33,741 nucleotides of DNA from an uncultured virus (IMG/VR IMGVR_UViG_2061766007_000275) (IMGVR_UViG_2061766007_000275), one strand, 5' to 3'. Numbered from the stretch's first letter, positions 1 through 33,695 are shown. Notes: generated by a model not told the origin, from the letters alone. Numbers and translations are program-made.

Positions 1-1314
1 CCCAGTGTTAACTTCACATGATAGCTGGGTATCCCCGCTATCTTTGTAAAATACAGTTCCGTTTAATGACTCAATATTGATAACATAACCACTAGCTCTA
101 TTTTCAACTGTAATTGAATTATCGAGAATTAAATCATTATAAATAGCTATACATCTATAAGTCTGTTGTCGTGCAGCTACTTGACTTACTTGAATATCTA
201 AAATATTAGTAGCACTATTCCAAACTTTTTTACCATTATCATTATATGAACTATTTAAACATTTCCAACCTTGTGTATCTATTGAAGGTAAAGAACATAA
301 ATCATCTTCATATAATGAGCCTCTATAAACTCTAGCATCTTGTTTAAACCAATAATATTTAATACCATCATCATTTATTATCACACCATCTAATCTAATT
401 TTAGCTAATAAAGAAATTAAATTTGGTGTAGGTTGTCCATACTGATTGGCGAAAAATATTGAACCATTCGGCGTTTCAAATGAGAGATATCCGCCGACCA
501 TCTGGCTTTCCGCAAGTTCTTTTTGTGCGGTAATGCTAAAATTCTTCATCCATACATCAATAGGTGGATTAGCTTTAGTAGAATAATTTTCTACAAAAGC
601 ATCTATTGATATAATCTCACCAAAATGCTCTACATCTAGTGGTAAAATAATAGATTGTGTGATATAATTCTCATATAGATTAGGATTACCTAACATATCA
701 GTAGATTTTAAAATATAGGTTCTAGCTTGTGTAGAATTAGGAATACTAACAACAATTCTAAAACCATATTCTCCTAATGTTTGTCGATTATCAATATTAC
801 TTTTAACATCAACTTGTAATTTAATATGAGAATTTTGTTTTATATATTCTTCTACTTTTGTAGTATTTAATTCTAATAAATTGTATAATGGATAATATTT
901 AGTTCCTTCCCACGTTGACATTTCTACTTCAATAGAAGGATTATCTAAAACATTATCTCCAATAGCATCATAATAATTTCTTTGTGTAATATTGCTGGCG
1001 TAATTTTCACCAAGCTTTTCTACTGTGCCAATAATAGTCTTAATAGCATCCCAATCATTCCCAGGTATCAATATATATACAAGAGTATCTTCAGTATAAG
1101 TTACATCAGGTTGCGGGCTGTACGCTAAAAATTTACTATCTTGATATTTACATTGATATTCACCTTTTGCGGAATTAGTGCAAGATATTATTGTAGCTTG
1201 AATAGTTTTATCAAATTTAGCTTTAGCTATATAGCGATCTACTATAATTTCAACAGCATCTAATACTGAATTAGCAAAATCACTTGATGAATGATTTAAC
1301 ATACTATCTTCCAT
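1..1314 (-). CDS. Putative tail/baseplate protein downstream of the tape measure (partial, runs off the window)
   Basis: ATG at 1314 follows the RBS AAGGAG(AGG). Reads MEDSMLNHSSSDFANSVLDAVEIIVDRYIAKAKFDKTIQATIISC... It is absent from the ORF track, consistent with no stop before base 1. Product inferred from position after the TMP. Confidence 0.6.
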   Translation of the reverse strand, partial: MEDSMLNHSSSDFANSVLDAVEIIVDRYIAKAKFDKTIQATIISCTNSAKGEYQCKYQDSKFLAYSPQPDVTYTEDTLVYILIPGNDWDAIKTIIGTVEKLGENYASNITQRNYYDAIGDNVLDNPSIEVEMSTWEGTKYYPLYNLLELNTTKVEEYIKQNSHIKLQVDVKSNIDNRQTLGEYGFRIVVSIPNSTQARTYILKSTDMLGNPNLYENYITQSIILPLDVEHFGEIISIDAFVENYSTKANPPIDVWMKNFSITAQKELAESQMVGGYLSFETPNGSIFFANQYGQPTPNLISLLAKIRLDGVIINDDGIKYYWFKQDARVYRGSLYEDDLCSLPSIDTQGWKCLNSSYNDNGKKVWNSATNILDIQVSQVAARQQTYRCIAIYNDLILDNSITVENRASGYVINIESLNGTVFYKDSGDTQLSCEVNTG

Positions 1315-1338
1315 TATTCCTCTCCTTTTCTTTCTTTT

Positions 1339-1367
1339 ATTATAAACTAATTTTTTTATAAAGTCAA
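1339..1367 (-). promoter_or_regulatory. sigmaA-type promoter TTGACT-17-TATAAT
   Basis: -35 at 1367-1362, -10 at 1344-1339, 17-nt spacer; lies upstream of the partial tail gene. Confidence 0.75.
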
Positions 1368-1393
1368 GAAGGTGCGCGAGGCACCTTCCTGAC
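1363..1393 (-). terminator. Hairpin/terminator after the tape measure gene
   Basis: GTCAGGAAGGTGC-loop-GCACCTTCTTGAC followed by TTTAT, just after the TGA; overlaps the -35 of the next promoter. Confidence 0.6.
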
Positions 1394-1400
1394 ATTTATA

Positions 1401-4400
1401 TCAATATTTTTTAGTAAAGGCTCTTTGAGATGCCATATTAACTAAGCTATCAAAGGCAGCTTTGATTTCATCACGATCGGTTGCATCAGGGAAGTCTGCA
1501 TTAATTGTGATATTTTGATTAAGTGGTGCGGCCTGACCATCTGGAGCCATACCACCATTATTTAACCTTTGTTGCATAGCGAAGAATGTATCAAACATAT
1601 TTGACTCTAATCTACCTACATCTATTTGTCTTATCATATCTACCATCTGTAACATATTCTTGGTATCATCTTTGTTTAGGACTAGTTCTTTCTCATGGAG
1701 CATAGCTAATTTTCCCTGATCGCCCCATGCGCCGGTATATCCACCTGTGTCAAAAGCTGTTTTATTCCTATAATCAGCAACTGACCAACTATCTCCCTGA
1801 ATATTTAAACTAACTATATTTTTAATATGTTTATCATTTTTTATTTCATCTAAAGAACGTTCTTTTAATTCAAAATCTATTCCTTGTTCTCTAAATGTAT
1901 CAACTTGAAAATACTTTTCTGCAACTTTTAAATCTTTTGTTGCAACAGCGTCTTCAAAAAGAGGCATACCAGATCTTCTATCTATCATAATAAAATATTT
2001 ATTACCAGAAGATTTTATATTGTTGCCTTTAAACTTATCTCCATCTCCAGTGTCTTCATCATTAGGTATCCCATCACCACGAGTAGGATTTCCATTGTTG
2101 CCAGAAGGAATATTAACTTCAGGTGCATAGCTCCATTTCTTTTTATTATACTCATCTAATAAACTAAACAACCCTTTAGCTTTAGTAGTTGCAGTATCGA
2201 AAGCAGTTCCTAACTCACCAACTTTTTCAGTTAAAGTGATAAAATTGCCTGATATTGTATTGAGATTATCTCTTAAATTCTCAGGATTAACTAATTTTAT
2301 TAAAGAATTATATGCAGCATCTGCATGACCTGTTAATCCTTTTTCTCCATCTTTTTTGCCTAAAGCTTTAGCTAAGTTTTTAATTTCTTTAGTTACATTT
2401 TGTATATTGGTTAAATCAATGCCAGTTTCACACTGTATTTTAAAATTGTTAACTGCATTAGAAGCTTCACCATATAACTCTATAACACCTTGTAATGTAG
2501 TTTCTTCATCTAAGTCAGTTTTAAACTTTTCTACATCTTTTATAAACTGATCTTGATATTCTTTGCAATCATCAAAACAAGTTTTAACGCCATCTGCTAC
2601 ACTGCTATTCCCATCTTTAGTCGGAATAAATTTATTAATAACATCTGTAATAGGTTTCTGTAGCCCCATGACTAATTCATCAATAGCTTCAGGTCCTTTC
2701 TGGACAAGAGTCTCAAATGAATTCATTAACCCCGGGGTTGCATTTGGATCATTTAGTATTTCATCAACATCCTCACTAACGTTACGTGCGGCAACTGCAT
2801 ATTCTTTTGTTGCTACAGATATTAAACCATTATCTTTGTCAAAATATTTCTTTTGTAATTCTTCTAACTTCTTATTCATAGCTTCTTGGTCGTTAATATA
2901 TTGAGGATCATTTAAAATAGCCTGTCTTTCTTCAGCAAATTCTTTATATAAATCCAAAGTTTCTTTGACCATTTCATTTGTTCTATCTTTATCCATATTA
3001 TAAAGATTATTTTTAGCTATGTCCACTTCTCCTTGAGCTTTATCAATTTCTTCTTGATTAGCAACATACTGATAAGTATAATTACCTTGACTATCTCTAC
3101 GAAGACGGAGGTTAGTTTTATTTTCTCTAGCTTCTTCTAAAGCAATTTGTTTTAATGTTAAATCATATTTTGCATTAGCTCTATCTAAGTCATATTGAGT
3201 TAATTTATCTTTCTCTCTCAACATCGCTAATTCTTCTTGCATAATTTTGTTAATCTTTTCACGAGCCTTTGTATTACCAATTTCTTTATTATATGCTTGA
3301 ATATATTTATTTCTTAATTGTTCAACATTAAATTCAGCATTAATAGTATCAAGATATTGATCAGCTTGTTTATTTAACAATTCCCATTGACTAATATATT
3401 CATCAATAGAATAACCATTAAATATACCCATATCAAGTTCAGACATTAACCTATCCATTTGCATCTTATATTCATTCATTCTAGCTTCAACTAAACTTTC
3501 AGTTAAATCATTTAGTTGTTGAATATTTTCTGACCAGATATTATAAGCTTCTTGAGCAACTTCTTTATCGCCACTATCAACAGCCTTCAGATAATCTTGA
3601 TAAGACTCTTTTGCAATTCGATTAGCTTCAACAGCTTGACTATATAAATTACCCGTTTTTTGTGTAGCTATATTTTCATGTACTACTCTAGCTTGTAATG
3701 AATCATCGCCATATAAAAGACTTGTAAGTTTATCCGCATGATCAAACATACCATTTGTCATATTATAATGTTCCATTACAGTCTTATTCCAATTTTGCAT
3801 TTCTTGAAGTGCATTTATATAAGCCTTACGAGCATCATCAACTGTAGATTTTATATCATCAAAAGCTCCTTGAATATCATCAGTCATTTTTTCTAGCTTT
3901 TCTATTAGTTTAGGGATTGCAGTTCTATCATAACTTTCGCCTTCCCACTCTCTAATTTCACCGACGCCCGCACTCTTTAAGAACATTATTACATCTGCTA
4001 AACTAGTTGCACTATTAGTTAATGCTGTCATAGATTGAGCACTTGTTTTAACAACCTGACGACTAGCTTTGCCAGTTGTTACTGCATCAATAGCAGTTTG
4101 ATCAGGATTAAGAACTAAGTCAACATTCCAAGCACCCATGTTCTTTTGGAATTCAAGAATTTGTTTTTTAACTTTAGATAAATCAACCATAGCTTCAATG
4201 CGGAGATCAGCTGTTTTTAACTTAATCTCTAATTGTTTAATTAAATTATCATATAGCTGTTCTTCTAATTGACGCCTATCATCTAAATATTTTTCATATT
4301 CAGATATATCTTGTTTTAAGTCATCTAATTCTTTTTTAACTTTATTATAGTGTTCTTCATCTACTTCTGAACGAGATTTATTAAATTGCTGTCTAGCTTT

Positions 4401-7400
4401 TTCTAATTCAGCTTCTTTCTTACGGATAACTTCATAATAATTTTCAATCTCGCCAGTATCTTTATTAAATTCAACTCCATATGCGGAAAGCCCTTTAGTG
4501 CCATCATCATTAACTTTTTGTGCTCTAAGGGTTGCTGCTTCATCTACAGCAATTTGAGCTCTTTCTTTTAATGCTTTGTTTTGTTCTTTTAATATACTTA
4601 ATTGATTTTTTAAGTTCTTTTCAAGTTTCTTACCTGTTAAGAATTCACTTTGTTTCTCTAATATAGCAGTAGTATGAGTTATTTCTTTTAATACTATATC
4701 TATATCATGATATACATCTAAAACAGATCTTGCTGCATCTATAGGTTTCTTTGTTGAACCAGACTTCTTACTATGGTCAGTACCTAAAGTTTTCATTGCT
4801 TCCTGTACTCCATATAGCGAAGCCCGCAATATACTTAATAATAAAACCTGTTCTTCTATTTCTTGATTTACTTCTTCCCATTCCGCATCTGTTTCAGTAT
4901 ATTGAAGCGCTCTTTGTTGTGCGGCTTCTAATTGAGCTTCTGTTGCTGCAATTTGTTGTTGTAATTGTTCAAATTGACGTTGAGCCATATCTGAAATACC
5001 AGCTTCATCAATTTGTAAACTACCATCTTGATTAACCTTCTGAATATATAATTCAGAATTTTTACAATTTTGTTGGAAAGTTTTAGCATCTTCTGCAGCA
5101 ACCTTCCACCCATCACCAACTGTTAATAAAGCTTCTTTAAGTTTATCAGATTGATTTACAACATGATATACTTCATTTTCTTGACGAGTTAAAGTATCAG
5201 TTAAGCCTTCTACAACTTTATCAGTATTCTCTATACCAGCTTTCCACTCTTCTAAAACTTTTAAATCATTTTGTAATTGAGCTTTTAAGGTATTATTAGT
5301 TACTTTATCTATTGCTTTTTGATATTTTTCGATAGCTTTTGTAATATTTTCTATACTACTATCTGCTGCTAATTCTTGTTTCATAGAATTTGCCATATCT
5401 TTAGCTTGACGATTAACATTACTTGAATATAAAACTTCATTATGTTCTGAATAAGAATAATTATGTAATCCACTTAAACTTTCATTTCTTAAATTGCTTT
5501 GTCTATCTTTTAAATAGCTATTAGTATCTTTTAATCTATCATCTAAAGCTTTTTTAGCTTCATTAATAGCATCAGATATTAATTCCCATTTACCAGACTC
5601 TAAAGCTTCTGTAAGTTTATCTCCTAATTCTCCTAACCCTTCAAATTCAAGCCAATTTAAAATAGCATCTAAAGTTTCATCATCTATTTTTTTATCTTCA
5701 TACCATTGACGCTCTAAACTATTAAAAGCTTGATATCCAGCTAAAGTCTGTTCCATTTCAAATTGAATAGCAACAGATAATGAATAATCTTTATTAAGAG
5801 CTTCTGTAATAGCTTTTTCAAAAACTTCACGAACATCTTTGTCTAAAATATCTAAAGGTAAATCAGCAAAAATATCACCTTTTTCAATACCTTCTTTTAT
5901 TTTTTTACCTGTTTTTACAGATAAATTATTTAAGAATGAAAAATCTGTTTCTCCAGATAGGGCTTTAGTTAAAGCATCTCCTAATCCTTCTGTATCATAT
6001 TCTTCACCAATTTTTTGTGCAGCTTTATCTATTTTTTGAATTTGTTCTATTGTTTTATTACCAACTTCATCCATATAAGTTTCAAAAGCTTCTTCAAGTA
6101 TTTCATTAGCAGCTTGCTGAGTGAAATGTTTAAGATTTTTTTTGACTTCTTCGCCATTTTCATCTTCAAAATAAACTTTATTATCTTTTATACCCTTATA
6201 TTCTAAATCATTTTCATTGGCATATGCTTCAATAAATTTTTCTACTTTTTCATATCTAGCATCCGCAGTATTATAATTTTGTTGATTTATAAAATCTATA
6301 TAATCATCTAATTGTGGTGTATCAGCGTATAAAACAGATGCTATTGTTTGTTGAACTACTGCAGATTGATCATGATATTCTCCATAGTCACCTTGCTCTA
6401 ATAAATTTCTATGAATTTCTTGCTTCCTAAAGGTATTTGCTTCTATTAAATCATCTTGCTTTGTAATAATAGTATTAACCTTATCTACTAATTCATTAGA
6501 AATTTCTAAATTTTCTTTATTTTCTATGTTTAAAGCATTTGCAAAAGCATCTATTAATTCAGCTTTAGTCATTGGCTTATTTGCATTTTTAATAACTTCT
6601 TGTAAATCACCTATTCTATCATTTAAATTAATACCAAAACCGTCTGCATCTCTTAAATATGGAACTGTATTAGATTTAGATATTCCAAAACCTATTTCTT
6701 TTTGTAACAAATCTCGTGTGTCTTTTTGATATTGTAAATTTGCCTGACTGATTTCTGACCAATAAGCATTTCTTTGAGATTGTAAATAAGTATTTTTAGC
6801 TTCTAATTCAACATCTTCTTGACTATATTCAGATTTTAAAACTAATCTACCTTCTGTATCTCTTCTAAAATATTTAGCTAATTCATTATTATTTTTAATT
6901 AATTCTAATATAGCTTCATTAGATTCTTGTAATGCTTTATTATAATCTTCAGTGCTAACTTTAGCATCTTCCATTGTTTTTGTTGCTTCTTCAAATTTAT
7001 TAAAAGTAGCAATAATAGAATCATAAGTAGACTTTAATTCTTCGGTTACTTCTTTAAATTCTCTTGCATTTTCTTCAGCTTCTTTTAAAGCTTCAGCTAA
7101 TTCATCAACAGGATCTCTAGTTAATAGATATATAACTGCAACAAGAGCCCCAACAGCAGCAGTAATTGCTATTAAGACAGGGAAAGCAGCTGTTAATGCA
7201 GCACCAAACCCTTTAGTAGCTATTTCTGCGCCTTTCATTCCAGTTGCTAATGAAATTATACCTGTTTTCATAGCTGTTATAGAACTAATTACCATAGGAG
7301 CCATCATAGCGAACTGCAATAAAATTTCATGCGGTTTCATTTTCTTTATATTACTAAAAGCATTCTTTACCATATTAATCGACATAGCAACTTGCCCCAT

Positions 7401-10235: not shown

Positions 10236-10263
10236 TCCTTGTTCCTCCTTTTCTTATAAAAAT

Positions 10264-10319
10264 AAAAAAGCCTTTGCTTTTATAATCTAATTCTATATAG
10301 ATTAAAAAGCAAAGGCTTT
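10264..10319 (-). terminator. Long-stem intrinsic terminator between the 177-aa gene and the TMP
   Basis: AAAGCCTTTGCTTTT / AAAAGCAAAGGCTTT arms plus inner TAATCTA/TAGATTA, followed by a T-run on the minus strand. Confidence 0.75.
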
Positions 10320-10338
10320 AAATTATATTATTTTGTCC
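10293..10338 (-). promoter_or_regulatory. GGACAA...ATAG putative phage late promoter (copy upstream of TMP)
   Basis: GGACAAAATAATATAATTTAAAGCCTTTGCTTTTTAATCTATATAG; same 46-nt geometry as three other intergenic copies. Confidence 0.55.
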
Positions 10339-10343
10339 GAAGA

Positions 10344-10877
10344 TTATTCTGGCATTTTATTATTATTAACTGCTTTTGCAAAATTGATAACATTTTCATA
10401 CTTATCAGGATTAAAATTATCAACTATATCTCTAGCTTCTGCTGCACTTTTTGGAAATTCAGTAACCAAAGTAGTAATAGCATCTGCAAGACTACCTTTA
10501 TACTGAACTGCGGCAGCCTGCTTCTCAACTAAATAATTATATAATTCATCATATTCAGCTTTTGGAATAGCTTCTAAAATTTTATTAAGCAATCCTGAAC
10601 TTAATAATTCATCATATATTTTCCCAATTTCAGATTTTTCTTCCTCTGTAAATTCTAAATCAGTATAGCAAAATACTACATAAGTATTAAATACAAAATC
10701 CAAAACCATAGGATCATAATATCCATCTGCATGAATTGAATTCTGAAGTGATATATCTATTAAAGATAATTTTTCAGAAATTGGTAAATACTGCTTTACA
10801 TTAATAACAAAACCATTTTTAAATTTAATAGGTTTTATTTCGTTGTTAGTTGTTAAACCTAAATCACTATATTTCAT
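10344..10877 (-). CDS. Hypothetical protein, possible tail assembly chaperone (177 aa)
   Basis: RBS AAGGAG; acidic helical protein immediately upstream of the TMP. Function inferred from position only. Confidence 0.5.
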   Translation of the reverse strand: MKYSDLGLTTNNEIKPIKFKNGFVINVKQYLPISEKLSLIDISLQNSIHADGYYDPMVLDFVFNTYVVFCYTDLEFTEEEKSEIGKIYDELLSSGLLNKILEAIPKAEYDELYNYLVEKQAAAVQYKGSLADAITTLVTEFPKSAAEARDIVDNFNPDKYENVINFAKAVNNNKMPE

Positions 10878-10912
10878 AACCTTTTATCTCCTTTTTATTA
10901 TTTTCTATTTAT

Positions 10913-10941
10913 ATTATAAAATAATTTTTTTAAGTTGTCAA
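10913..10941 (-). promoter_or_regulatory. Perfect-consensus sigmaA promoter TTGACA-17-TATAAT
   Basis: -35 at 10941-10936, -10 at 10918-10913. Confidence 0.8.
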
Positions 10942-12654: not shown

Positions 12655-12669
12655 GGCACCTCCTCCCGC

Positions 12670-22697: not shown

Positions 22698-22712
22698 TTA
22701 AGCACCTCACTA

Positions 22713-23069: not shown

Positions 23070-23092
23070 TTCTTTTTCTCCTTTACCTTAAT

Positions 23093-23138
23093 TCATTAAA
23101 TATAAAAACTAATTTATGAACATTAAAATAATTTGTCC
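23093..23138 (-). promoter_or_regulatory. GGACAA-type putative late promoter (upstream of nuclease-portal)
   Basis: GGACAAATTATTTTAATGTTCATAAATTAGTTTTTATATTTAATGA; the 3' element is a weaker match. Confidence 0.45.
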
Positions 23139-24881: not shown

Positions 24882-26157
24882 AAGGTTTGTCCTCCTTAAA
24901 TTCTTCTTCGTCCTCTTCTTCTTCAGCACCTTCTTCATAATCTTCACGTTCAGCATCAATTAATCTTTGATTTTCAATTTCTTCTAAGTATTCACTAATA
25001 TCTTTATCTCCAAGTCCTTCAATTTCTTTATCTTCTTCTAAATTCGCTTCCTCTTCTTCTTGTTGACGTAACTTCAAAGCTTTCAAAGCATTTTCAATTT
25101 GGTCACCAAAACCTAAATCTTGTGTAACCAATTTATATGAATAATTATTCATATCCTTAATTGTAAAATCAACTTTATCTTGCGGAATGTCAGTAGGAAA
25201 TCTAGGTATGAAACCATCAGTCTCACACATAACAATAAGTTCTCCAATACTTGCAACACCAGCATCTTTATCTTCCTTATTCTGTGCTGCTGTAAACTTA
25301 GTTGATTTACGCATTGACTCATATGTACTGCTTAATTTCTTAAATGACTCCACATCGCCTGCATCAAGAGCTTGATTCATCTTAAGGATAACTTTACAAA
25401 TCATCATCAAAGCCTTTTCAGTATCTGGATCATTAACTTCAAAGCTATTTACATATTCTTTATATGTAGCTTCAAGTTCAATCCATTCTGCGGGTTTATA
25501 TAATCGACCCCACTTCATAGCAAGATAAACTTTATCTTCTTGCGTCAATTCACTTGCGGGATCCGGGAGGTCTTCTTCGGGAATGTAGTCATTTTCATCG
25601 AAAAATACTGGACTGTCATCAGATGAGCTGCCCTTCGCGCCCTTCTTATCCTTTCCCGCAAACACATTTGGATCTACTAAATATTTATCTCTATCACTCT
25701 CTTGTTGAACAACTGAAGTCATAGTTTTATATTCATATTCGGAAATTTGACCTTCTTGCAGTTGTTTTAATAAATCATTACTATACTCTTCCTCTTGTTT
25801 AGCAAGATTAGCAATTCTTTCTTCTTTTTCTGCTTTTAGCTTTTCAGTAGCTGCATAATTATATTTGTTCCATTGACCTAATTTCATTTTAGATAAATAC
25901 TTACCAAATGCGGCCGCATGATTAAATTTATCAGCACCTTTTTTAGCATAATCTTTATTAACTGTGGCATTGAATTCTTCTTCAATATAAGGAACGTCTA
26001 TCTTCTCTAAAACCCACATAAATGTTTCCGGTTTAAAAACATCTATGTGCATAGTTAGACATTTCTTGCATATATCTAATGGCTCTCCAGTTTTCTTTTT
26101 ATAGAACTCCTTATCTTGAAGTACTTTGCCACATTTTTTACAAAGTACTGTTGCCAT
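24868..26157 (-). CDS. Zn-finger protein upstream of TerL, candidate terminase small subunit (429 aa)
   Basis: N-terminal CKKC-x-CKKC, acidic C-tail, overlaps the TerL start. Confidence 0.5.
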   Translation of the reverse strand: MATVLCKKCGKVLQDKEFYKKKTGEPLDICKKCLTMHIDVFKPETFMWVLEKIDVPYIEEEFNATVNKDYAKKGADKFNHAAAFGKYLSKMKLGQWNKYNYAATEKLKAEKEERIANLAKQEEEYSNDLLKQLQEGQISEYEYKTMTSVVQQESDRDKYLVDPNVFAGKDKKGAKGSSSDDSPVFFDENDYIPEEDLPDPASELTQEDKVYLAMKWGRLYKPAEWIELEATYKEYVNSFEVNDPDTEKALMMICKVILKMNQALDAGDVESFKKLSSTYESMRKSTKFTAAQNKEDKDAGVASIGELIVMCETDGFIPRFPTDIPQDKVDFTIKDMNNYSYKLVTQDLGFGDQIENALKALKLRQQEEEEANLEEDKEIEGLGDKDISEYLEEIENQRLIDAEREDYEEGAEEEEDEEEFKEDKPYGFI

Positions 26158-26160
26158 TTT

Positions 26161-27426
26161 TTATTTTCCTTTCTTCTCTTTATATTTATCACTTCGACAA
26201 GTTTTACAAATAGAATAAAATCCATCTTTGCTACTCTTGTTCTTTGAAAAGAAATGATGGTTAGCTAATTTTACTATCCCGCAACAACTACACTTTTTCC
26301 ATTGACCTTTTTCAACATTAGTATAATACCATTCAAGATAATTTTGTTCACATTTTTCAGCAATCATTTTAGGTATTTTATTTTTCCATAATGAAGAAAT
26401 ATATTCTTCACTATAAGATATATTATATTTTTCTAAAAGTTTTTGTTTTATAGTTTCATTTTTTAATCCATCAATCTTCCATGTGATTATATCAATATAA
26501 AACTTATCTTCTTCTTTTTGAAAAGTTTCGTCCACTAATTTATCCAAATCTTCCATTTGATAATATAAATCATTAAACTTTCCCCAACTATCTTCTTTTA
26601 ACTTCGAGTAATTTCCTAATAAAGCTGCTACATGCTGTGGATTTATGCATGAAAGAAGCCCCTTTACAACAACATCTCCTTTATCATTAACACTTATTTC
26701 TTCAGACAAGTTTGTATGTCCACTAGTAATTTTGATTAGATGCATTGATTTTATCTGGGGCTTATATGCTGCTCTTATTATATATCTATCTTGGTACATT
26801 TCAATTATCTGTTTTTTTATTAAATATCTATCTTTTCCTCTTGTTCTTTTTAATTTCTCCTCTAACTTAACAATAGCATCTGTTAATTCTTTTAACTCAG
26901 GAATTTCATCAATATCCTTTTGGGTAATTGGATCTTTTGGCGTTAGAATAATATTCTTATCATAATCTGTAATTAGATTATATAATCCATCTTCTCCTTG
27001 TTCAAAGCTACTCGCCAATCCTTGTAAGGAGGTTTCTCTTACATAAACCGTACCTTTTAATCTATTTGGAGTTTGTATTAATTTCTCTTTTTTCTCTTTT
27101 TTATCCATAGCTAATACTATGTATGTTCCTAATATATCTAAATAATAAGGTGTTAATTGTTCAGGAGTTGCTGACTCGACAATCTTATTTACTAATGCAG
27201 TTCTTTCTTCTGGCGTTTTTAAGGTATAGTCTAAAGCAATTTTAGGTCGCTCTTTAATCTTTTCTTCTCTTTTTTGTAAAGAAGCATCTGATTTATTCAT
27301 TTTATCTTCTTCTTCAATATTAACTAAAATTGGCTCATACCCGCCATAATTGTCATCTTCATCTTCTTCTAGATAATATTCTTCATTATCATTACTTTCA
27401 TAATCATAATCATCGTAATCAGACAT
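26161..27426 (-). CDS. Hypothetical protein with C-terminal Zn ribbon and possible HTH (421 aa)
   Basis: Very acidic N-terminus; IITWKIDGLKNETIKQKL...YISSLW resembles a sigma4-like HTH; CSCC...CKTC at the C-terminus. RBS AAAGGAG. Confidence 0.6.
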   Translation of the reverse strand: MSDYDDYDYESNDNEEYYLEEDEDDNYGGYEPILVNIEEEDKMNKSDASLQKREEKIKERPKIALDYTLKTPEERTALVNKIVESATPEQLTPYYLDILGTYIVLAMDKKEKKEKLIQTPNRLKGTVYVRETSLQGLASSFEQGEDGLYNLITDYDKNIILTPKDPITQKDIDEIPELKELTDAIVKLEEKLKRTRGKDRYLIKKQIIEMYQDRYIIRAAYKPQIKSMHLIKITSGHTNLSEEISVNDKGDVVVKGLLSCINPQHVAALLGNYSKLKEDSWGKFNDLYYQMEDLDKLVDETFQKEEDKFYIDIITWKIDGLKNETIKQKLLEKYNISYSEEYISSLWKNKIPKMIAEKCEQNYLEWYYTNVEKGQWKKCSCCGIVKLANHHFFSKNKSSKDGFYSICKTCRSDKYKEKKGK

Positions 27427-27457
27427 TTTTAATCTCCTTTCTTTATTTTCTATATTA

Positions 27458-27486
27458 AGTATAACAAAAATTTTTTAAGTTGTCAA
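27458..27486 (-). promoter_or_regulatory. sigmaA promoter TTGACA-17-TATACT with extended -10 (TGn)
   Basis: -35 at 27486-27481, -10 at 27463-27458. Confidence 0.75.
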
Positions 27487-27487
27487 C

Positions 27488-27522
27488 AAAAAAATAGGGG
27501 AACCATATTACTATAGTCCCCC
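27488..27522 (-). terminator. Intrinsic terminator after the glycosyltransferase
   Basis: GGGGGACTATA-loop-TATGGTTCCCC then TATTTTTTT. Confidence 0.75.
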
Positions 27523-27530
27523 TTATATCT

Positions 27531-28139
27531 TTATTCAATTATACAATCTGCACTTGCTACTCCGCATTTTGCATCATTATCTAATATTTCTTGCGGAAGC
27601 TTGCTTCTAATCTCTGCAAACTCTTCATCTCCACGATATTCTTCTGTCTTAACTTTCTCCATAAATTCAAAGAAAGTAATTTTTGGAATAATATTAATAA
27701 GATCTTGAGCCTTTCCCGCAAGCTGCATTGTGTACATTTGTTTTAAAATATCATTATCAATTTGTTTTTCTATATCTTTATAACACTCATTATAAAATTT
27801 CTTTGCATTAAAGAAATTTTGTTCTGCAAATATTGGTTTACGTTCTAGACATTCTATATAGGTAAAATACTGACCAACCATCATTTCTGCTGTAAACTTT
27901 GTAATAGAACCATTAAAAGGATTTTTCTTACGACAAAATTTAATTGCATTAATAGATGCTACTGTTGCGCCCCACTGACATAAATCAAAATTGTATTGCG
28001 GGATCCCGCTATCATCTACGCCTATCCTAGTAATAGAATGCTCTGAACCAGTTCTCCATAAATATACCGGTTCTTTAATAACATTAATAAGTAATGGCGA
28101 ACCTTCAATAGTCATCCTAATCTTCCAATTTAACTCACC
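27531..28139 (-). CDS. GT2 glycosyltransferase, exon 2 (202 aa)
   Basis: The frame opens at GGT GAG TTA AAT TGG (GELNWKIRMTIEG...) directly after the intron terminal G, and continues the GT-A fold (PVYLWR..EHSITR). Confidence 0.85.
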   Translation of the reverse strand, partial: GELNWKIRMTIEGSPLLINVIKEPVYLWRTGSEHSITRIGVDDSGIPQYNFDLCQWGATVASINAIKFCRKKNPFNGSITKFTAEMMVGQYFTYIECLERKPIFAEQNFFNAKKFYNECYKDIEKQIDNDILKQMYTMQLAGKAQDLINIIPKITFFEFMEKVKTEEYRGDEEFAEIRSKLPQEILDNDAKCGVASADCIIE

Positions 28140-29084
28140 CTTAAAATACCTTATATCCCTATAAGGAATAGACTATTTCTTCTATATAACTTTAGTTATA
28201 TAGCAGCGCACTTCGAATTACGTACCAATAGTAATTCTACTCCCTTACATTCATCGGGGTTAGTCGTTACACTTTTAATCATCATCATCAATATATTTCC
28301 AACTAATTCTTTCTTTTGTTATTGGATGTCTGCCTGCTGTTTTAGTTACTCCCTTACAAGCTTTCCCAATGGATGAACCATCTTTACATCCAACCCATTT
28401 AGCTGCTTCTATCATTGTATCAAAAATTTCTCCTGTAGATGCTTGAACTTTTCTAGCTCTATTTGCATCTTTACCAACTCTTAATTTTGCTTGTTCAGAT
28501 AAAAGCTTTTTAGTTTCTTCTGTATGTTTTTTACCATACATTCCATTTTTTTCTCCAGTTAAATGAACTCCATACATTCCATTTTTCTCTCCTTTTAAAC
28601 CCTCTGATATTTTCTTTCTTACATCTTCAGTAGGATTTAAAATTCCATCTCCACCTTCTGATATATTATAGCCATTATTTTTTGAATCAAAATATTTAAT
28701 CCAATATTTTTCTTTATCTTTAAGTTCATCTACACTGCATTCTTCTATAATAGTATATTCAAAATTATCAACACCATATAAATTATAAGCATTTTGTAAA
28801 TGTTCATTTTCATGTTTTCCATTTTTTAAATCTCTTTTATGAGTTTGCCATCTTCTTTGTATATCTATTGAATAACCTATATATCTATGATTATTTTGAA
28901 TATTTCTTATACTATATATTCCTATTATTTCAAATCACCTCTTTCTTTTTGTGATTTGATGATGATGAAAACTTAGCACGGCGTTGTCTGGTCTAGAGTT
29001 TCGCCGTTAGCACATAGTTATTTGTTCTTATCTATGCACACCGCTGGTTTGCGTTCACACTGTTTAAGGAGGACTAGTGTGTCA
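28140..29084 (-). ncRNA. Group I intron (945 nt, probably subgroup IA) with an internal homing endonuclease
   Basis: P1: exon GGAGGAU pairs with IGS GUCCUCC (29074-29068), with U.G at the splice site. P4 ACGGCG/CGCCGU. R GUAACGACUA and S GAAGAAAUAGUC form P7. Extra hairpins P7.1/P7.2, P8 CUAUAUAACU/AGUUAUAUAG, P9 CCUUAU/AUAAGG, terminal G at 28140. Splicing restores the frame. Confidence 0.92.
28275..28928 (-). CDS. Intron-encoded GIY-YIG homing endonuclease with NUMOD3-type repeats (217 aa, probable ATA start)
   Basis: Manual translation: IIGIYSIRNIQNNHRYIGYSIDIQRRWQTHK...EKYWI...GYN, then GEKNGMYG twice, KKHTEETK, and a C-terminal HTH-like segment. The track calls only the last 100 aa. Confidence 0.9.
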   Translation of the reverse strand: MIGIYSIRNIQNNHRYIGYSIDIQRRWQTHKRDLKNGKHENEHLQNAYNLYGVDNFEYTIIEECSVDELKDKEKYWIKYFDSKNNGYNISEGGDGILNPTEDVRKKISEGLKGEKNGMYGVHLTGEKNGMYGKKHTEETKKLLSEQAKLRVGKDANRARKVQASTGEIFDTMIEAAKWVGCKDGSSIGKACKGVTKTAGRHPITKERISWKYIDDDD

Positions 29085-29609
29085 ATCCTCCATGGCCCTC
29101 AACTTAGTAAATCCAATTTCATTCTTCTTTAAAAAATTAACATTATACATTCTACCAAATACCCATGGATGACCAACATCATTTCTAGGTACCATTCTTA
29201 TTCCCTTAGGATGTCCTACAACTTCCTGACAAAAAGGTGCTTGAACTTCAACAACTTCCGCCTTAACAACTCCCGCTAATAAAGACTCAAGAGCAAATGG
29301 TGTCATAAAAACATCATCAGCATCTATAAAAGTAATCCAATCAGTAATCGCTGCATCTAAGCATCTCTGTCTTGCTAATCCAGGTCCAGTATTCTTTTCA
29401 CAATCTAATATTTTAATATCTAACTGTGGGAAGTCCGTTTTTAAAAATTCATAATCATCATCTGGGTTGTCTTTTCCTATTATAACTGTTACATTATCTC
29501 TTACAGTTTGTATCATAATAGAAGATAAACAATCTCTAATATGACTTTCTGCTTTATATGCAGGAATACCTACCGTAAGCATTTTCTTATCCGTATTGAA
29601 TATATTCAT
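29085..29609 (-). CDS. GT2 glycosyltransferase, exon 1 (175 aa; spliced product 377 aa)
   Basis: VGIPAYK, NTGPGLAR, WITFIDADD (DxD); ends at the conserved ED. RBS AAGGAG. Confidence 0.9.
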
Positions 29610-29629
29610 CCTTTTATCTCCTTTTTTAA

Positions 29630-29911
29630 TTAAATATCTTCTTCGTCACTCCAACGCTGAAAATAACTTAATTTAAGATCTTCTCCTCTCATGAGTTTAT
29701 CTATTTTTAAATTATTCTTTCTAATTTCATCTTGCAATATAGCTATTAAATGAGTGCGGTTTGCCACATCATTACCTAAATCTATTTGTTTATTATTTTC
29801 ATCTATCATTAACTTCATTTGTTCTATAATGATATTAATAATTCTAATCTTATCTGTCCTGCTATAAGAACAAGTTCCATTAATTAAAGACTCATCACCT
29901 GTCGCTTTCAT
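29630..29911 (-). CDS. Hypothetical protein (93 aa), paralog of the upstream gene
   Basis: RBS AAGGAGG; shares ENN.QIDL..DVA.RT.LIA.L with 29923-30183. Confidence 0.7.
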   Translation of the reverse strand: MKATGDESLINGTCSYSRTDKIRIINIIIEQMKLMIDENNKQIDLGNDVANRTHLIAILQDEIRKNNLKIDKLMRGEDLKLSYFQRWSDEEDI

Positions 29912-29922
29912 GCTATCCCTCC

Positions 29923-30183
29923 TTACTCTCCTTCGCGGGAAGCCTTTTCCGCCAATAAAGCGGTCTTTTCATCTGTTTTAAATTCTTTTTCTTTATTTAA
30001 TAAAGCTATTAATCTTGTTCTACCCGCCACATCATCTTCTAAATCAATTTGCCTATTGTTTTCAGCTACCATTCTATCTATCTGATCTAGTATAGCCTGA
30101 TTAATATCAATAGCAATATCTAAATCTAAATCTGACAAATTGGAAAAATCATAATCATTTACTAACGGAATAACATCTGCCAT
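29923..30183 (-). CDS. Hypothetical protein (86 aa)
   Basis: RBS AAGGAGG; acidic and helical. Confidence 0.7.
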   Translation of the reverse strand: MADVIPLVNDYDFSNLSDLDLDIAIDINQAILDQIDRMVAENNRQIDLEDDVAGRTRLIALLNKEKEFKTDEKTALLAEKASREGE

Positions 30184-30200
30184 TTACATTCCTCCTTATA

Positions 30201-30503
30201 TTATAATGTAAGCATCTGTTTTACCCAAGCCGCCTTATCAACATACTGTCTATGCTCAGCATCCCATTTATCTAACATATCTGCGGGAGGCTTAACACCA
30301 GCCGCCTGTATCTTTTTAATTTCTTCTATTACATAATCATGTAAATATCCGGCATGCTTAAGTTCATCATTTGCCATTTCTTTATATTTTGAAGCCATTG
30401 AAGTTTCTCCACTGACCTTTTTATCTATATAATTTTCTGCATAATGCTGAGCATCACATAATTCTTCTGTTATATGCTCAGCCAATTCTTTTATTTTTTT
30501 CAT
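30201..30503 (-). CDS. Small ferritin-like helical protein (100 aa)
   Basis: EELCDAQHY...MANDELKHAGYL contains an ExxH half-site typical of ferritin/rubrerythrin-like helical pairs. RBS AAGGAG. Confidence 0.6.
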   Translation of the reverse strand: MKKIKELAEHITEELCDAQHYAENYIDKKVSGETSMASKYKEMANDELKHAGYLHDYVIEEIKKIQAAGVKPPADMLDKWDAEHRQYVDKAAWVKQMLTL

Positions 30504-30528
30504 ATATGTTAATTCTCCTTCTTTTATA

Positions 30529-30570
30529 AAAAATAAAGCCCCTTATAGTAAAAAACAACTATAAGGGGCT
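30529..30570 (-). terminator. Intrinsic terminator
   Basis: AGCCCCTTATAGT / ACTATAAGGGGCT 13-bp stem then TTATTTTTT. Confidence 0.8.
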
Positions 30571-30601
30571 GAAAATCCTAGTTTAAAATCTATAACTTAA
30601 A

Positions 30602-31024
30602 TCAGATCTTTATTGCTTGTGTAACAACAGTAATTGCAGTTCCTGCTCCTGTAGTCGCTACAAGAGTAATAGAATCTGGAATTTGTTCACAAGGACAACC
30701 TCCATTATAATTTTCTTTTACTATAATTGATGGTAATGTTATTGTCATAGGAACAGTTGTTGAAGCAGCATTTGTTGTTGCGGAAGCTCCTGGGATTAAT
30801 ACACCATTTCTATATAATGATAAAGTTACCTGGCCTGCTTCGCTAGGAAGTATAGTTGCTGAAACTGATATACTATAATATCCTGCGCCTATAATACTTA
30901 ACGCATTACCGTTTATACCAAGATTAGGTCCAAATCTATAAATAATATTACCTAAACTAATATCTCCATTCTCTATAAAAGCCTGAGAAGTATTATTCAA
31001 TATTTGTATAGCCGACTTGCTCAT
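30602..31024 (-). CDS. Beta-rich protein, possible BclA-C/C1q-like jelly roll (140 aa; start revised)
   Basis: AAGGAGG at 31037-31031 precedes ATG 31027/31024. Pattern I.GAGYYSISVS...V.LSL..NGV.IPGA. Confidence 0.55.
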   Translation of the reverse strand: MSKSAIQILNNTSQAFIENGDISLGNIIYRFGPNLGINGNALSIIGAGYYSISVSATILPSEAGQVTLSLYRNGVLIPGASATTNAASTTVPMTITLPSIIVKENYNGGCPCEQIPDSITLVATTGAGTAITVVTQAIKI

Positions 31025-31035
31025 CATAAACCTCC

Positions 31036-31695
31036 TTAGTTCATTCCACAACCGCATCCACCACAAAATGGATTAACTCCACTTGAATAAGTTGATGCCA
31101 TAGGATATCTTACTACACCTGATACAGCTTGATTTAATTCAAGAGCACTTACTTTATCACGCAAAGCCTAGATTGTATTAGCATCCATCTTAGCTGCTAA
31201 GCGCTGCTCGACTCCCGCAATCTGCATAGCAGTTTCATATTTGCTATTAGCAATCTGTGCTGCAATTTCTGCGGAGGTACCCTGAACTAACTGTTTAACA
31301 TCACAACAACAATTCTGCATATTTCCACTTAAGGCGGTAAGCGCTGTTTCTACTGTACCAAATTCTCTTATAAGAGAAGCATTACCATCCTTAATTGCGT
31401 TAATAGCATTTGCAGCATTAGCTGTACTAGCTGCTATTGTCTGTGCTGTTCCATTAGTTACTGCACTAAGAATATCTCTTGTTTGAGCCTGAAGGTTTTG
31501 ATTATCAAAGCCTCTGTTCACGTCCGCTTGAATGGCATTAGTATTAGAGTTATTGCCTCCAAAGTTACCAAAGTTACCTCCAGCTAAGATAAGTAAAGCA
31601 AAAATCCAAAATGCTCCACCCATACCATTCATGCAATTTCCGCCGTTATTACCCAATAAAGCAATGTCTGACGCTGTGAGTCCATTATTTTCCAT
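31036..31695 (-). CDS. Gly/Asn/Cys-rich protein with an in-frame TAG at 31170-31168 (219 aa if read through, 175 aa if not)
   Basis: After TAG the frame continues ALRDKVSALELNQAVSGVVRYPMASTYSSGVNPFCGGCGCGMN-TAA. That TAA overlaps the next RBS. Confidence 0.7.
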
Positions 31696-31802
31696 AATGA
31701 ATTCTCCTTTCTTCTAATAAATTTTTTTAGTCAGCGGCTATCTCCTTATAGATAGTCGGTGAAAGATATTTTAATTCTTGCAAGAAATTAAAAACGCAAA
31801 AA

Positions 31803-32063
31803 TTAAAGTCCCATTGTTTTGGCAAGACTAGCTAAATCATTAAGATTAACACCTAAAGACTCCATACTTAATCTTGCGGCTTGCTCATAATTTCCGCCAC
31901 ATTGATCAAGCACTTCTAAAACTTGTTTTCCATTAGGTAAATTAGCTAATTGTTGTCGTAATATGGTATCAGTATTTGATGCGGACTGGACTGCTTTGTA
32001 CGCTTCCATTATTGGACTGCGCATTACTTGCTGTCCCATTATCTGGTTTACCAGTGCATTCAT
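31803..32063 (-). CDS. Hypothetical protein (86 aa)
   Basis: RBS AGGAGG; Gln/Met-rich and helical. Confidence 0.7.
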   Translation of the reverse strand: MNALVNQIMGQQVMRSPIMEAYKAVQSASNTDTILRQQLANLPNGKQVLEVLDQCGGNYEQAARLSMESLGVNLNDLASLAKTMGL

Positions 32064-32388
32064 TTTCTTTACCTCCTAAAAGTTCTGTTAGAGTTTCTGC
32101 TAACATAGATTTTAATTCATCCTTTGTTACATAATTCTCCATATTAGGCGGTGCATTGCTAAAGAATTTATTGGTTACATCTTTAGCTTCATACGCCAAC
32201 AATGATTTTGTCATGCCATATTCATTGGAACTTTTTAAATAAAAGATCACATTTGGTGAACTTCTATCAATGAATACTGCTGTCTGATTTGGTTGCATTT
32301 CCACTTGCTTAACAGCTTCTGGACCATCAACCAAATTGACTCCAAAAATTACATTTTGTCTTTGTAATGTATTTGGATAAGCTATCAT
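31969..32388 (-). CDS. Hypothetical protein (139 aa)
   Basis: RBS AAAGGAG; first gene of the small-gene cassette; its 3' end overlaps the next gene by 95 nt. Confidence 0.7.
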   Translation of the reverse strand: MIAYPNTLQRQNVIFGVNLVDGPEAVKQVEMQPNQTAVFIDRSSPNVIFYLKSSNEYGMTKSLLAYEAKDVTNKFFSNAPPNMENYVTKDELKSMLAETLTELLGGKENECTGKPDNGTASNAQSNNGSVQSSPVRIKY

Positions 32389-32407
32389 ATTTTTATTTTC
32401 TCCTTTA

Positions 32408-32453
32408 CTATATATTTTAAAAATTAATTAAAAGACTTTTAATTGAATTGTCC
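32408..32453 (-). promoter_or_regulatory. GGACAA...ATAG putative late promoter (upstream of the small-gene cassette)
   Basis: GGACAATTCAATTAAAAGTCTTTTAATTAATTTTTAAAATATATAG. Confidence 0.55.
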
Positions 32454-32515
32454 AAAAATTCTTTTAACCAATTTTTAATTTTTAATTTTTTTTCTTAACT
32501 CATCTTACATAAATA

Positions 32516-32544
32516 ATTATATCAAAAATTTTTTAAATTGTCAA
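32516..32544 (-). promoter_or_regulatory. Perfect-consensus sigmaA promoter TTGACA-17-TATAAT with extended -10
   Basis: -35 at 32544-32539, -10 at 32521-32516. Confidence 0.8.
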
Positions 32545-32550
32545 AAAATT

Positions 32551-33585
32551 TTATAAATTATTTAAAGTAGTTAATGGTAAATTAGTTCTTATTCCATTCT
32601 CATCAAAATATTGTTCTAATATATTATCTGTTGAAATATCAGTATATGTATCAACCATATTAGTAGATGACCAGCCAATAATTTCTTTTATTACATTTGG
32701 AGGAATATTCTTTTTTACATATTGAGTAGTTGCATAATGTCTTATACTATGCCAATAAAAATCTTTGCCAAGAAATTTAGTAAAATATTCTGCCCAACCA
32801 TCAAGAGTATCAGTTAAAATAGGTTCGTCAAGATTGGTTGTTTTAGGAAAAAGCCATATACTTTCTATTCCTTTTTCTTTTCTTTCATCCATCCATAATT
32901 TTAAATATGGATCAAATTCATTTTTAAGGATATATAGTTCTATCATTTTTCCTTTTGTTGTTGCACCTTTTGTTTTTACTTTTTCAGGTGTTTTATATAG
33001 TGAACCAAATAATACATTTTTTTCATCAAAATAAGATACTTTAAATCTAGGTAATTCTGCTTTTCTTCTTGCAGAACACATAGCTAAACTTAATGCACAT
33101 GCTTGCTTATATTTTTTCTGTGATACTAAATGGTCTAATAATTTTTGCAATTCTTCTGTTTCAAAAACTGTTTTTTCTCTAACTAATGTTAAAGGTGGTG
33201 ATTCTATTTTTCTAATAATAGAATGATAATCTTCAAATTCCTCTTCTTCATCTAAAATATTTTCAATAAAATTAGATAAAGAAGATATTACTGATTTAAC
33301 TCTTCTTAACCGATTTGGACTCCATTCCCATTCTGTTAAAGCTTTCCCTTGAAATTTTGTCAATTCTCTTTTAGTAATTTTAATAAAGGGTTTATTATTA
33401 TTATCCGTAACATTCCAACAAAAAAATATGTTTAAATCATTTTTATATTGAGCTATTGTTGTTTTAGCCCTATCTATTGATGTTAAATAATCTAAAAATG
33501 AAGAAATTAAAAATTTATTTTGTTCATTAAATTGCGCTATTAATTCTGGACTAGATATGTGATTTACTTTAGTTTTTCTTGCCAT
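32551..33585 (-). CDS. Tyrosine recombinase/integrase family protein (344 aa)
   Basis: SAM-like N-domain (AKTTIAQYKNDL); catalytic R (ARRKAEL), K (KTKG), HSIR, W (IIGW) and Y (VDTY). Confidence 0.9.
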   Translation of the reverse strand: MARKTKVNHISSPELIAQFNEQNKFLISSFLDYLTSIDRAKTTIAQYKNDLNIFFCWNVTDNNNKPFIKITKRELTKFQGKALTEWEWSPNRLRRVKSVISSLSNFIENILDEEEEFEDYHSIIRKIESPPLTLVREKTVFETEELQKLLDHLVSQKKYKQACALSLAMCSARRKAELPRFKVSYFDEKNVLFGSLYKTPEKVKTKGATTKGKMIELYILKNEFDPYLKLWMDERKEKGIESIWLFPKTTNLDEPILTDTLDGWAEYFTKFLGKDFYWHSIRHYATTQYVKKNIPPNVIKEIIGWSSTNMVDTYTDISTDNILEQYFDENGIRTNLPLTTLNNL

Positions 33586-33608
33586 AATATTATCTCCTTT
33601 TTTCTTTT

Positions 33609-33637
33609 ATTATAGCAAAAATTTTTTAAAAAGTCAA
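33609..33637 (-). promoter_or_regulatory. sigmaA promoter TTGACT-17-TATAAT with extended -10
   Basis: -35 at 33637-33632, -10 at 33614-33609; upstream of the recombinase. Confidence 0.8.
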
Positions 33638-33656
33638 CCCACAAGTATTTAATAAT

Positions 33657-33695
33657 AAAAATAAAGATGCGACATTAGGTACCTAATGCCGCATT
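33657..33695 (-). terminator. Intrinsic terminator of the gene upstream of the window
   Basis: AATGCGGCATTAGG-TA-CCTAATGTCGCATC then TTTATTTTT. A frame IFKGVGGTGTTIRRGNAALGT ends with TAA (33677-33675) inside it. Confidence 0.65.

Follow-up and report, generated by a model that had tools for sequence, protein, structure and literature searches.

A short GC-rich word over-represented in uncultured gut phages as a candidate Chi-like signal for Lachnospiraceae AddAB

Why does one GC-rich pentamer recur throughout a phage sequence of only 31.7% GC? The question is raised by IMGVR_UViG_2061766007_000275, a 33,741-base stretch of DNA from an uncultured virus (hereafter the window, meaning that whole stretch), in which TGCGG and its complement CCGCA are strongly over-represented. 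An initial annotation of the sequence had read the word as a selected, dispersed DNA signal within coding sequence, and had named as candidates the target of a phage DNA-modification enzyme, a primase, nicking or Chi-like recombination site, and the site of a genome-organising protein. We find that the word is a DNA-level signal selected for copy number and not for particular positions. As to what reads it, we propose, at about even confidence, that it is a Chi-like regulatory word of the AddAB enzyme of a Lachnospiraceae host, accumulated by the phage. The annotation's remark that such a signal is undescribed agrees with our literature search (of incomplete coverage, main texts only), which returned no description of the word in phages and no Chi for Lachnospiraceae or Clostridia.

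Exact counting bears out the hand count of about 38 and 32 copies: the plus strand holds 38 TGCGG (526..31984; CCGCA on the coding strand) and 32 CCGCA (510..33693; TGCGG on the minus, coding strand), 70 in total, and every coordinate listed earlier is occupied. All genes of the window lie on the minus strand, and 94% of the sequence is coding. Base composition predicts 13.8 copies of the pair, near the earlier figure of about 12, and gives a 5.1-fold excess. Base composition is a poor null, however, because GCAGC/GCTGC looks 5.2-fold enriched on it. Two codon-based nulls were used, with 300 shuffles of each for window totals. Null A shuffles synonymous codons within each gene and keeps the proteins and codon usage; null B permutes third codon positions among codons that share the first two bases, the amino acid and the next base, and keeps proteins, codon usage and every dinucleotide count. 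Under these the 69 copies of GCAGC/GCTGC compare with 76.3 (A) and 73.0 (B), and their abundance is fully accounted for by codon usage.

The annotation had allowed that the enrichment might vanish under codon-preserving shuffles or be matched by similar GC-rich pentamers. It does not vanish: 70 copies stand against 20.4±3.9 under null A (z 12.6, maximum 31) and 30.8±3.8 under the dinucleotide-keeping null B (z 10.3, maximum 40), none of the 300 shuffles of either null reaches 70, and TGCGG/CCGCA is the top pentamer pair under both. Amino-acid content is therefore not the explanation, as had been argued, since the excess survives shuffles that keep the proteins. On the coding strand, CCGCA occurs 38 times against 6.9 (A, z 11.9) and 9.3 (B, z 9.4), and TGCGG 32 times against 13.3 (A, z 5.1) and 21.1 (B, z 2.4); null B is blind to an excess of GCG followed by G and so understates the TGCGG orientation, for which null A is the fairer test. 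As for similar pentamers, GCAGC/GCTGC is an equal on base composition only, and two sister words are truly enriched over positions 1..33741: CCGCC/GGCGG (23 copies against 10.0 under A and 14.5 under B) and CCCGC/GCGGG (33 against 9.3 and 11.7). The signal is therefore broader than a single pentamer. The control chosen earlier, AGCGG/CCGCT, had been put at about 10 copies and counts 2 + 10 = 12, below the 22.4 (A) and 28.8 (B) expected; it is itself depleted, which inflated the contrast.

The same preference extends to related phages. Nine related phage contigs, of which all or most of the sequence was used, make up our clade set together with the window; the terminase of the complete relative G001 is 55-56% identical to that of the window. 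In all 10 contigs CCGCA or CCGCC is one of the three leading pentamer pairs of 512, and the favoured form drifts, with GCGCA leading in G004 and strong in G003 and CCGCC leading in G015c. Of 41 shorter loci, 6 have the pair in first place and another 9 in second or third. Under the same method no word exceeds a z of about 6 in two cultured outgroups, Enterococcus phage H1 and Bacillus phage FADO, or in four bacterial bins. On the question, raised by the annotation, of whether sites are conserved or turn over, the aligned parts of the window and its closest relative, G005, hold 32 and 35 sites, with 8 of 32 conserved and a mean for all pentamers of 30%. Individual sites thus turn over at the background rate, and density is maintained.

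Spacing per strand in six genomes has a coefficient of variation of 0.84-1.29, random or slightly clumped, with gaps of up to 4-8 kb. Even spacing of the word was accordingly rejected, as it is no more regular than random. Clustering at the genome ends of G001 was also considered and set aside: the 'terminal repeat' there is 127 bases only, and relative to local composition the word is in uniform excess along the genome, by 3.3-7.4 times.

We examined the exact form of the word in 516 kb pooled from six clade genomes, as ratios to null A in frames 0, 1 and 2. These are 2.7, 4.0 and 3.5 for CCGCA, 2.6, 2.3 and 2.9 for CCGCC, 1.5, 5.0 and 2.2 for TGCGG, 2.3, 2.8 and 2.3 for GGCGG, 1.4, 1.3 and 1.4 for CCGCG, and 1.5, 1.3 and 0.8 for AGCGG, the least enriched variant. 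In the pooled flank table CCGC is enriched when followed by A or C and not when followed by T or G. Codon choice in the pooled relatives depends on the next bases: the proline codon CCG is used at 31% before CA and at 7% elsewhere, TGC is favoured before GG, and GCC, CCC, TCC and ACC are favoured before GCA (odds ratios 3 to 21) and not before GCT. GTC, ATC, AAC, GAC, TTC and TAC show no preference before GCA (odds ratios 0.5-1.3), and GGC a modest one (2.1). In the window itself, 51 of 68 genic copies fall into two alanine-codon frames, NCC-GCA (28 of the 38 plus-strand TGCGG) and NNT-GCG-GNN (23 of the minus-strand copies; two others, at 12666 and 33689, are intergenic). The earlier statement that copies lie in different reading frames thus holds for all frames in the pooled relatives and much less well in the window. 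The flanks of the 70 window sites favour T at -2 (40/70) and have no extended consensus.

Among ten CpG tetramer contexts, CCGC/GCGG alone is enriched (2.17 times), and CpG overall is depleted to 0.56-0.68 of expectation. Words one letter away from TGCGG/CCGCA all show a mild deficit, and because these deficits are evenly spread, no single mutational route feeds the word. We also rejected a Dcm/Vsr-type repair bias linked to methylation, as the deficits are not concentrated in the word's transition neighbours. In non-coding DNA of two relatives the word occurs at 5.2 and 2.5 per kb, similar to its coding density. CCGCA and TGCGG are found on the coding strand at 38:32 in the window and at 143:178 and 83:99 elsewhere, whereas the nulls give ratios of about 0.45; of the two orientations the rarer gets the larger boost, and the strands are equalised, as would suit a reader that acts on a single strand but is required on both. 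Where a genome has genes in both directions, the pattern tracks the coding strand of each gene, and genes opposed to their neighbours give 1.93 against 1.96, although 39 such genes are too few to separate coding-strand from replication-strand bias. Shuffles, frames, both orientations, non-coding DNA and all ten clade contigs together uphold the annotation's view of a selected, dispersed signal within coding sequence.

A bacterial genus carries the same word. G001 encodes a flagellin (L022:15002-15811) that is 80% identical to the flagellin of the bacterial genome G167 and looks acquired from bacteria; G167 belongs to the same family as a genome bin labelled Lachnospiraceae. In 200 kb of G167, null A puts TGCGG first among 1024 oriented pentamers (396 against 199.8) and null B puts it second, CCGCA is also enriched (290 against 180), and AGCGG, CGCGG, CCGCT and CCGCG are not. 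Genes of either orientation and non-coding DNA alike show an excess of about 2-fold. Of 7 more genomes sampled from the G167 genus, 6 place the pair among the top 15 of 512 whichever null is used; elsewhere in the family, two genomes whose flagellins are 74-75% identical show no such excess. By frame, the bacterial enrichment is 2.4 times in NNT-GCG-G and 1.2-1.4 in other frames.

The sharing between phage and bacterium is specific to TGCGG/CCGCA. The correlation of pentamer profiles between phage and G167 is 0.20, and between phage and bacteria lacking the word 0.17-0.34; the other top words of G167 (CGGAA, ATCCG, TCCGA and ACGGA) stand at 0.71-1.26 in the phage and are not enriched there. 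Density is 2.23 per kb in the phage (0.76 under its own null) and 3.6 per kb in the bacteria, with a fold-excess of 2.9 in the phage and 1.8 in the bacterium. The word was not carried over with the flagellin gene: the G001 flagellin contains 6 copies of CCGC(A/C) in 810 bases, and its word sites were not inherited with the gene, because none of them is at the position of a G167 flagellin site. We infer that the G167 genus, or one with the same word, is host to the phage.

A candidate reader for the word is at hand in that genus. Matches to AddA (TIGR02785) exceed the curated cut-off in 5 of 5 genomes and, in a search of the G167 genus, in 12 of 13, and an AddB-sized open reading frame (ORF) that matches B. 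subtilis AddB adjoins addA in 10 of 10 loci. TGCGG is one base from the B. subtilis Chi, AGCGG, which is likewise a five-base word with a GCGG core that is over-represented in its genome (4CEJ; PMC4614115, in the part available), and the S. aureus word GAAGCGG ends in GCGG as TGCGG does; both Chi words were defined by protection of rolling-circle DNA, according to the accessible part of the source (10.1101/2021.07.08.451572). In the sections available of the structural account (PMC4614115), Chi is read on the 3'-ending single strand by a pocket of AddB, all five bases are specifically bonded, F210 and E217 hold the first base, E217 by a hydrogen bond (B. subtilis numbering), and D41, Q42, T44, F68, R70 and W73 otherwise shape the pocket. 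Most pocket residues are kept in Lachnospiraceae: an alignment of 10 AddB proteins retains D41, Q42, F68, R70 and F210, has Q in place of E217 in 10 of 10, and has A in place of T44 in the four genomes where TGCGG stands out most, the others keeping T. Judged from the alignment, the pocket may fit a changed first Chi base. Here that base is T (or G) and not A, the strand skew is weak, and TGCGG is known as a word from sequence alone. B. subtilis phage SPP1 served as positive control: it has AGCGG 77 times against 47.7, with the GCGG core as its most enriched CpG tetramer and no enrichment of TGCGG. SPP1 has recombination proteins of its own, yet by our count carries extra AGCGG.

We propose that AddAB of the G167 genus may read TGCGG and that the phage would gain from carrying it. 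AddAB would enter at a free double-strand end, that of an injected linear genome or of a rolling-circle tail, and would unwind and degrade the DNA; on meeting the word on the strand that ends 3' at the entry point, it would stop cutting that strand and shift from destruction to RecA-dependent recombination. Because such ends could form at any point and on either side, it would pay the phage to carry the word densely on both strands, which it could do by way of otherwise rare synonymous codons. The Chi-like candidate of the annotation, one of several there, is now the best supported, as the flagellin-linked genus both shares the word and encodes AddAB.

Several observations weigh against this proposal. 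On the bacterial majority coding strand of 8 contigs TGCGG and CCGCA stand at 767:575 (57%, with the direction of replication guessed from gene orientation), against a co-orientation of 89.7% given for the S. aureus Chi word in the available part of the source (10.1101/2021.07.08.451572). The phage has 31.7% GC and the G167 genus 41-55%. The host link is a single gene of one relative, and the window has no such gene; a glycosyltransferase common to G001 and the window has no match in 401 genomes of a Lachnospiraceae family sample. Four bins labelled Erysipelotrichaceae or Bacilli that held related phage contigs (G006, G007, G008 and G010) show no excess of the word; being without it they were rejected as hosts, and the placement of clade contigs in them is a probable case of mis-binning. 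Of the bins holding the contigs G013c to G016c, only G016 shows the pair in moderate excess. Kinship confounds the AddB pattern, in that the four proteins with A at position 44 are 74-80% identical and the others 44-50%. Sak4-like and RecJ-like recombination proteins are encoded by the clade itself, and G001 adds a gp5.9-like RecBCD inhibitor; lambdoid phages with such recombination modules are mostly without Chi, as far as the available text describes them (PMC12315714). Firmicute phages do not uniformly collect Chi, as shown by Bacillus phage FADO, where the Chi of its host, AGCGG/CCGCT, occurs 2 times against 29.5 expected from base composition (L132, 60001-110000). Chi frequencies have also been argued to follow codon usage (10.1101/2021.07.08.451572, in the part available), and over-representation alone is no proof of function.

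Among the proposed readers, some would come from the phage, and here its relatives are informative. The window is a structural and packaging block that has no replication genes. G001 encodes a PolIII alpha subunit, a DnaB-like helicase, a ligase, gyrase and RNase H, together with RecJ-like, Sak4-like and RecD-like proteins. Its primase (L023:3531-4628; phrog_47, E 7e-45) adjoins the DnaB-like helicase, an arrangement found in all near-complete clade genomes, with homologues 39-57% identical; a CHC2 zinc motif is conserved in the clade primase, for which the Aquifex DnaG structure 2AU3 is a match (E 8e-4). Covariation of the primase zinc finger with the preferred word was tried as a clue and dropped, since the zinc motif is conserved everywhere and hence uninformative. 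Sak4-like and RecJ-like genes occur in 7 of 7 near-complete clade genomes, in a part of the genome that the window does not cover, and the T7 gp5.9-like RecBCD inhibitor occurs in G001 only (L022:16728-17000). Among G001 ORFs of at least 75 codons (123 proteins against Pfam, part of them against PHROGs) we found no DNA methyltransferase or base-modification enzyme.

The alternatives fall to different parts of this evidence. A purely translational preference for the codon pairs NCC-GCA and NNT-GCG-G would account for the 51 of 68 genic window copies in those frames and for the absence of the word from genes thought to be highly expressed; it is largely refuted, and we give it next to no weight, because all three frames and both orientations are enriched in the pooled data, non-coding DNA is enriched, NCC has no preference before GCT, and most C-ending codons have none before GCA (GGC 2.1). 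A second reading, in which the word is a functionless by-product of a mutation, repair or codon-context bias common to bacteria and their resident phages, is unlikely but, with the primase sites discussed below, one of the two main rivals. It draws on the presence of the word in both host-lineage genomes and phages, on the peak of bacterial enrichment in one codon context (NNT-GCG-G, 2.4 against 1.2-1.4), on random spacing, background-rate turnover and weak strand skew, and on the argument that Chi abundance can follow codon usage (10.1101/2021.07.08.451572, as far as the available text goes). A common bias sits poorly, however, with a phage in which the rest of the G167 signature is absent (correlation 0.20, top words 0.71-1.26) and in which the excess is larger than in the bacterium (2.9 against 1.8) despite the phage's own replication enzymes. 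The phage excess moreover extends to all frames, deficits are spread over all one-letter neighbours and not along one mutational path, and it is the orientation disfavoured by composition that gains more, so that the strands become equal. A target of a DNA-modification or nicking enzyme, or a site for a genome-organising protein that binds double-stranded DNA, would suit a DNA-level signal on both strands and in non-coding DNA, and avoided palindromes show restriction pressure in these phages. We nonetheless hold it very improbable: restriction targets are usually avoided and not enriched, an orientation-blind reader would not explain the stronger boost of the rarer orientation, and the methylase-target idea of the annotation lost its footing when no such enzyme emerged from the scanned G001 ORFs.

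The primase candidate of the annotation is weakened, as bacteria share the word, and we think it rather improbable. On this account the word marks start sites of the phage's own DnaG-type primase, which would bind 5'-CCGC(A/C)-3' on a single-stranded template, leave the 3' base uncopied and begin the primer with pppGCGG; so GC-rich a site would be too rare at 31% GC, and the phage would add copies. The clade does have a CHC2-motif primase beside its helicase, the preferred word drifts across it (GCGCA in G003/G004, CCGCC in G015c), and numbers on the two strands are similar. Precedents in the available part of one account (PMC12839067) are the GC(G/C) of M. tuberculosis DnaG and the T7 pentamers 5'-(G/T)2GTC-3' with an uncopied 3' base, which are short, degenerate, read on single strands, dispersed in genes and recognised by a phage zinc-finger primase such as this clade also has. 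The same part of that account reports no enrichment of T7 sites over chance, and here bacteria without the phage primase have the same top word. Phage H1, with a homologous primase (36% identical), has no enriched word, spacing is random or slightly clustered with gaps of up to 4-8 kb per strand, and our literature search found no published genome-wide enrichment of a DnaG-type site. The need for enrichment is also unclear when primases use a few per cent of their sites, as the available text has it (PMC12839067). More broadly, the word might be a new, nearly orientation-blind signal read by an enzyme that the phage brings itself, and might have converged or been exchanged with the Lachnospiraceae genus; we regard this as doubtful, though worth entertaining. 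The reader could be the zinc-finger primase, or the RecD-like helicase with the RecJ-like nuclease, and the word could mark 'own' DNA for replication-coupled recombination or spare it from degradation. The weak bacterial skew, the larger fold-excess in the phage and the drift to GCGCA and CCGCC fit a phage-borne reader at least as well as they fit Chi. We prefer the Chi-like word of host AddAB because the bacterial genus linked by the flagellin shares the word and encodes AddAB.

Compared with other systems in which phages or bacteria collect short words, the clade stands apart in several respects. Chi-rich lambdoid phages such as LLS likewise hold far more host recombination-control words than chance would give; in the available part of their description (PMC12315714) they are without recombination genes of their own or a RecBCD inhibitor, unlike the clade relatives with Sak4-like and RecJ-like proteins and one gp5.9-like protein, and their Chi is an 8-mer read by RecBCD and clustered at genome ends, whereas here a 5-mer is evenly spread. 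The core of the Haemophilus uptake signal sequence contains TGCGG, and uptake words too are in excess on both strands, lie within genes and are selected for density (PMC5217627, in the part available). Uptake sequences are 9-12 bases long with fixed flanks according to that part of the source; here there are no such flanks, and the organisms are unrelated. A DNA uptake sequence was accordingly rejected, the flanks of the 70 window sites showing no extended consensus of 9-12 bases.

If the Chi-like assignment is right, it would be the first Chi proposed for Lachnospiraceae, a major gut and rumen family, and a naturally occurring word one base away from the only Chi for which a crystal structure shows the recognition, so that recognition rules could be tested at AddB residues 43, 44, 217 and 218. 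Large Firmicute phages with recombination genes of their own would still be investing heavily in host Chi, by way of rare codons across most genes, which runs counter to the lambdoid pattern. The shared word also offers a host-prediction clue for an uncultured rumen phage clade whose members were binned with at least ten differently labelled bins.

Within the window, TGCGG starts on the plus strand at 526, 1112, 1168, 1527, 2787, 4199, 4482, 4920, 7330, 7401, 9354, 9561, 10509, 14809, 15359, 15613, 17291, 18768, 18783, 19200, 19503, 19605, 21590, 23394, 23812, 23970, 25181, 25489, 25555, 25909, 27592, 27997, 29755, 30282, 30779, 31270, 31875 and 31980. CCGCA (TGCGG on the minus strand) starts, in plus-strand coordinates, at 510, 3734, 3968, 4824, 4883, 6263, 8951, 9485, 9554, 11271, 11346, 12666, 14008, 14862, 15403, 15774, 15880, 17323, 20717, 22089, 23372, 23696, 23870, 24377, 25656, 25914, 26279, 27562, 27716, 31052, 31215 and 33689. 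Both inverted pairs pointed out by the annotation are present on inspection, CCGCA-CG-TGCGG as a 12-base palindrome at 9554..9565 and the abutting TGCGG-CCGCA as a 10-base palindrome at 25909..25918; they are unremarkable, since 70 sites would by chance alone yield about 1.7 pairs within 12 bases.

The annotation had also found no copies in an intron and in genes for a recombinase, a major capsid protein and a tail tube. The counts are indeed zero, but the emptiness of these ORFs reflects codon choice, because almost no codons there can form the word, and two of the names are unconfirmed. The minus-strand ORF at 17517..18569, earlier the 'major capsid protein', belongs to phrog_4088, of unknown function (0 copies, codon-shuffle mean about 0), and that at 12716..13705, earlier the 'tail tube', to phrog_2729, a virion structural protein (0 copies against 0.1). 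The tyrosine recombinase or integrase ORF at 32551..33585 on the minus strand (PF00589, E 4.7e-15; phrog_1 integrase) has 0 copies against 0.0. The exact position list also leaves 28116..29081 without a copy. Family searches place a NUMOD3 endonuclease ORF (28275-28577, minus strand) in the gap that precedes a family-2 glycosyltransferase ORF (29082-29609, minus strand), which covers the N-terminal part of its family only, and this gap may be the intron of the annotation.

A second homing-endonuclease ORF (22713-23069, minus strand) adjoins the portal gene (20957-22697, minus strand), which is interrupted by a run of 10 N, an assembly gap, at 21707-21716. A sigma-factor-like protein (26161-27426, minus strand; phrog_5767, E 1.5e-42) lies directly upstream of the packaging genes. 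The window also encodes a tape-measure protein of 2,944 residues and a large terminase 42-44% identical to those of Geobacillus virus E3 and Enterococcus phages H1 and EF1 and about 33% identical to those of large Bacillus siphophages. A DNA search with 15 kb of the window gave zero matches to cultured phages, and the sequencing runs that contain the window sequence are labelled bovine gut metagenomes.

Clade contigs (L047-L074), many of whole-genome size (125-151 kb), occur in bins labelled Erysipelotrichaceae, Bacilli, Lachnospiraceae, Oscillospiraceae, Treponema, Bacteroidales, Endomicrobiaceae and others; most of these placements are probably binning errors. One such bin, G014 (L185-L189; 58% GC, labelled Oscillospiraceae), which held the 36% GC contig G014c, has GGCGG/CCGCC as its top pair (379 against 259).

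Close relatives of the window seem to use other genetic codes. Reading TAG as sense lifts coding density from 0.51-0.70 to 0.82-0.89 in G013c-G016c (L100-L130), three of which have primase homologues with one in-frame TAG, and reading TGA as sense lifts it from 0.68 to 0.84 in G003 (L028-L034); the standard code fits the window, G001 and G002.

Avoided words were recorded as well. Pooled over the window, G005, G001 and G002, the palindromes CAATTG and ATCGAT fall to 0.25 and 0.29 of the null, TCGA, GATC, ACGT and CCGG are likewise low, and runs of AAAAA/TTTTT are depleted; the palindrome avoidance fits restriction-enzyme pressure. In the same FADO interval as above, CGCGG/CCGCG occurs 0 times against 14.9, with TGCGG and GGCGG at expectation. 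The coding sequence of SPP1 (L133) has 0 copies of GCAGC/GCTGC against 38 and 31, and 0 of CCAGG/CCTGG against 18 and 17, a clean signature of restriction avoidance. Beside its flagellin, G001 carries a gene for a FliD cap protein (L024:9459-10829) and a Tad8-like Thoeris inhibitor (L026:9317-9550).

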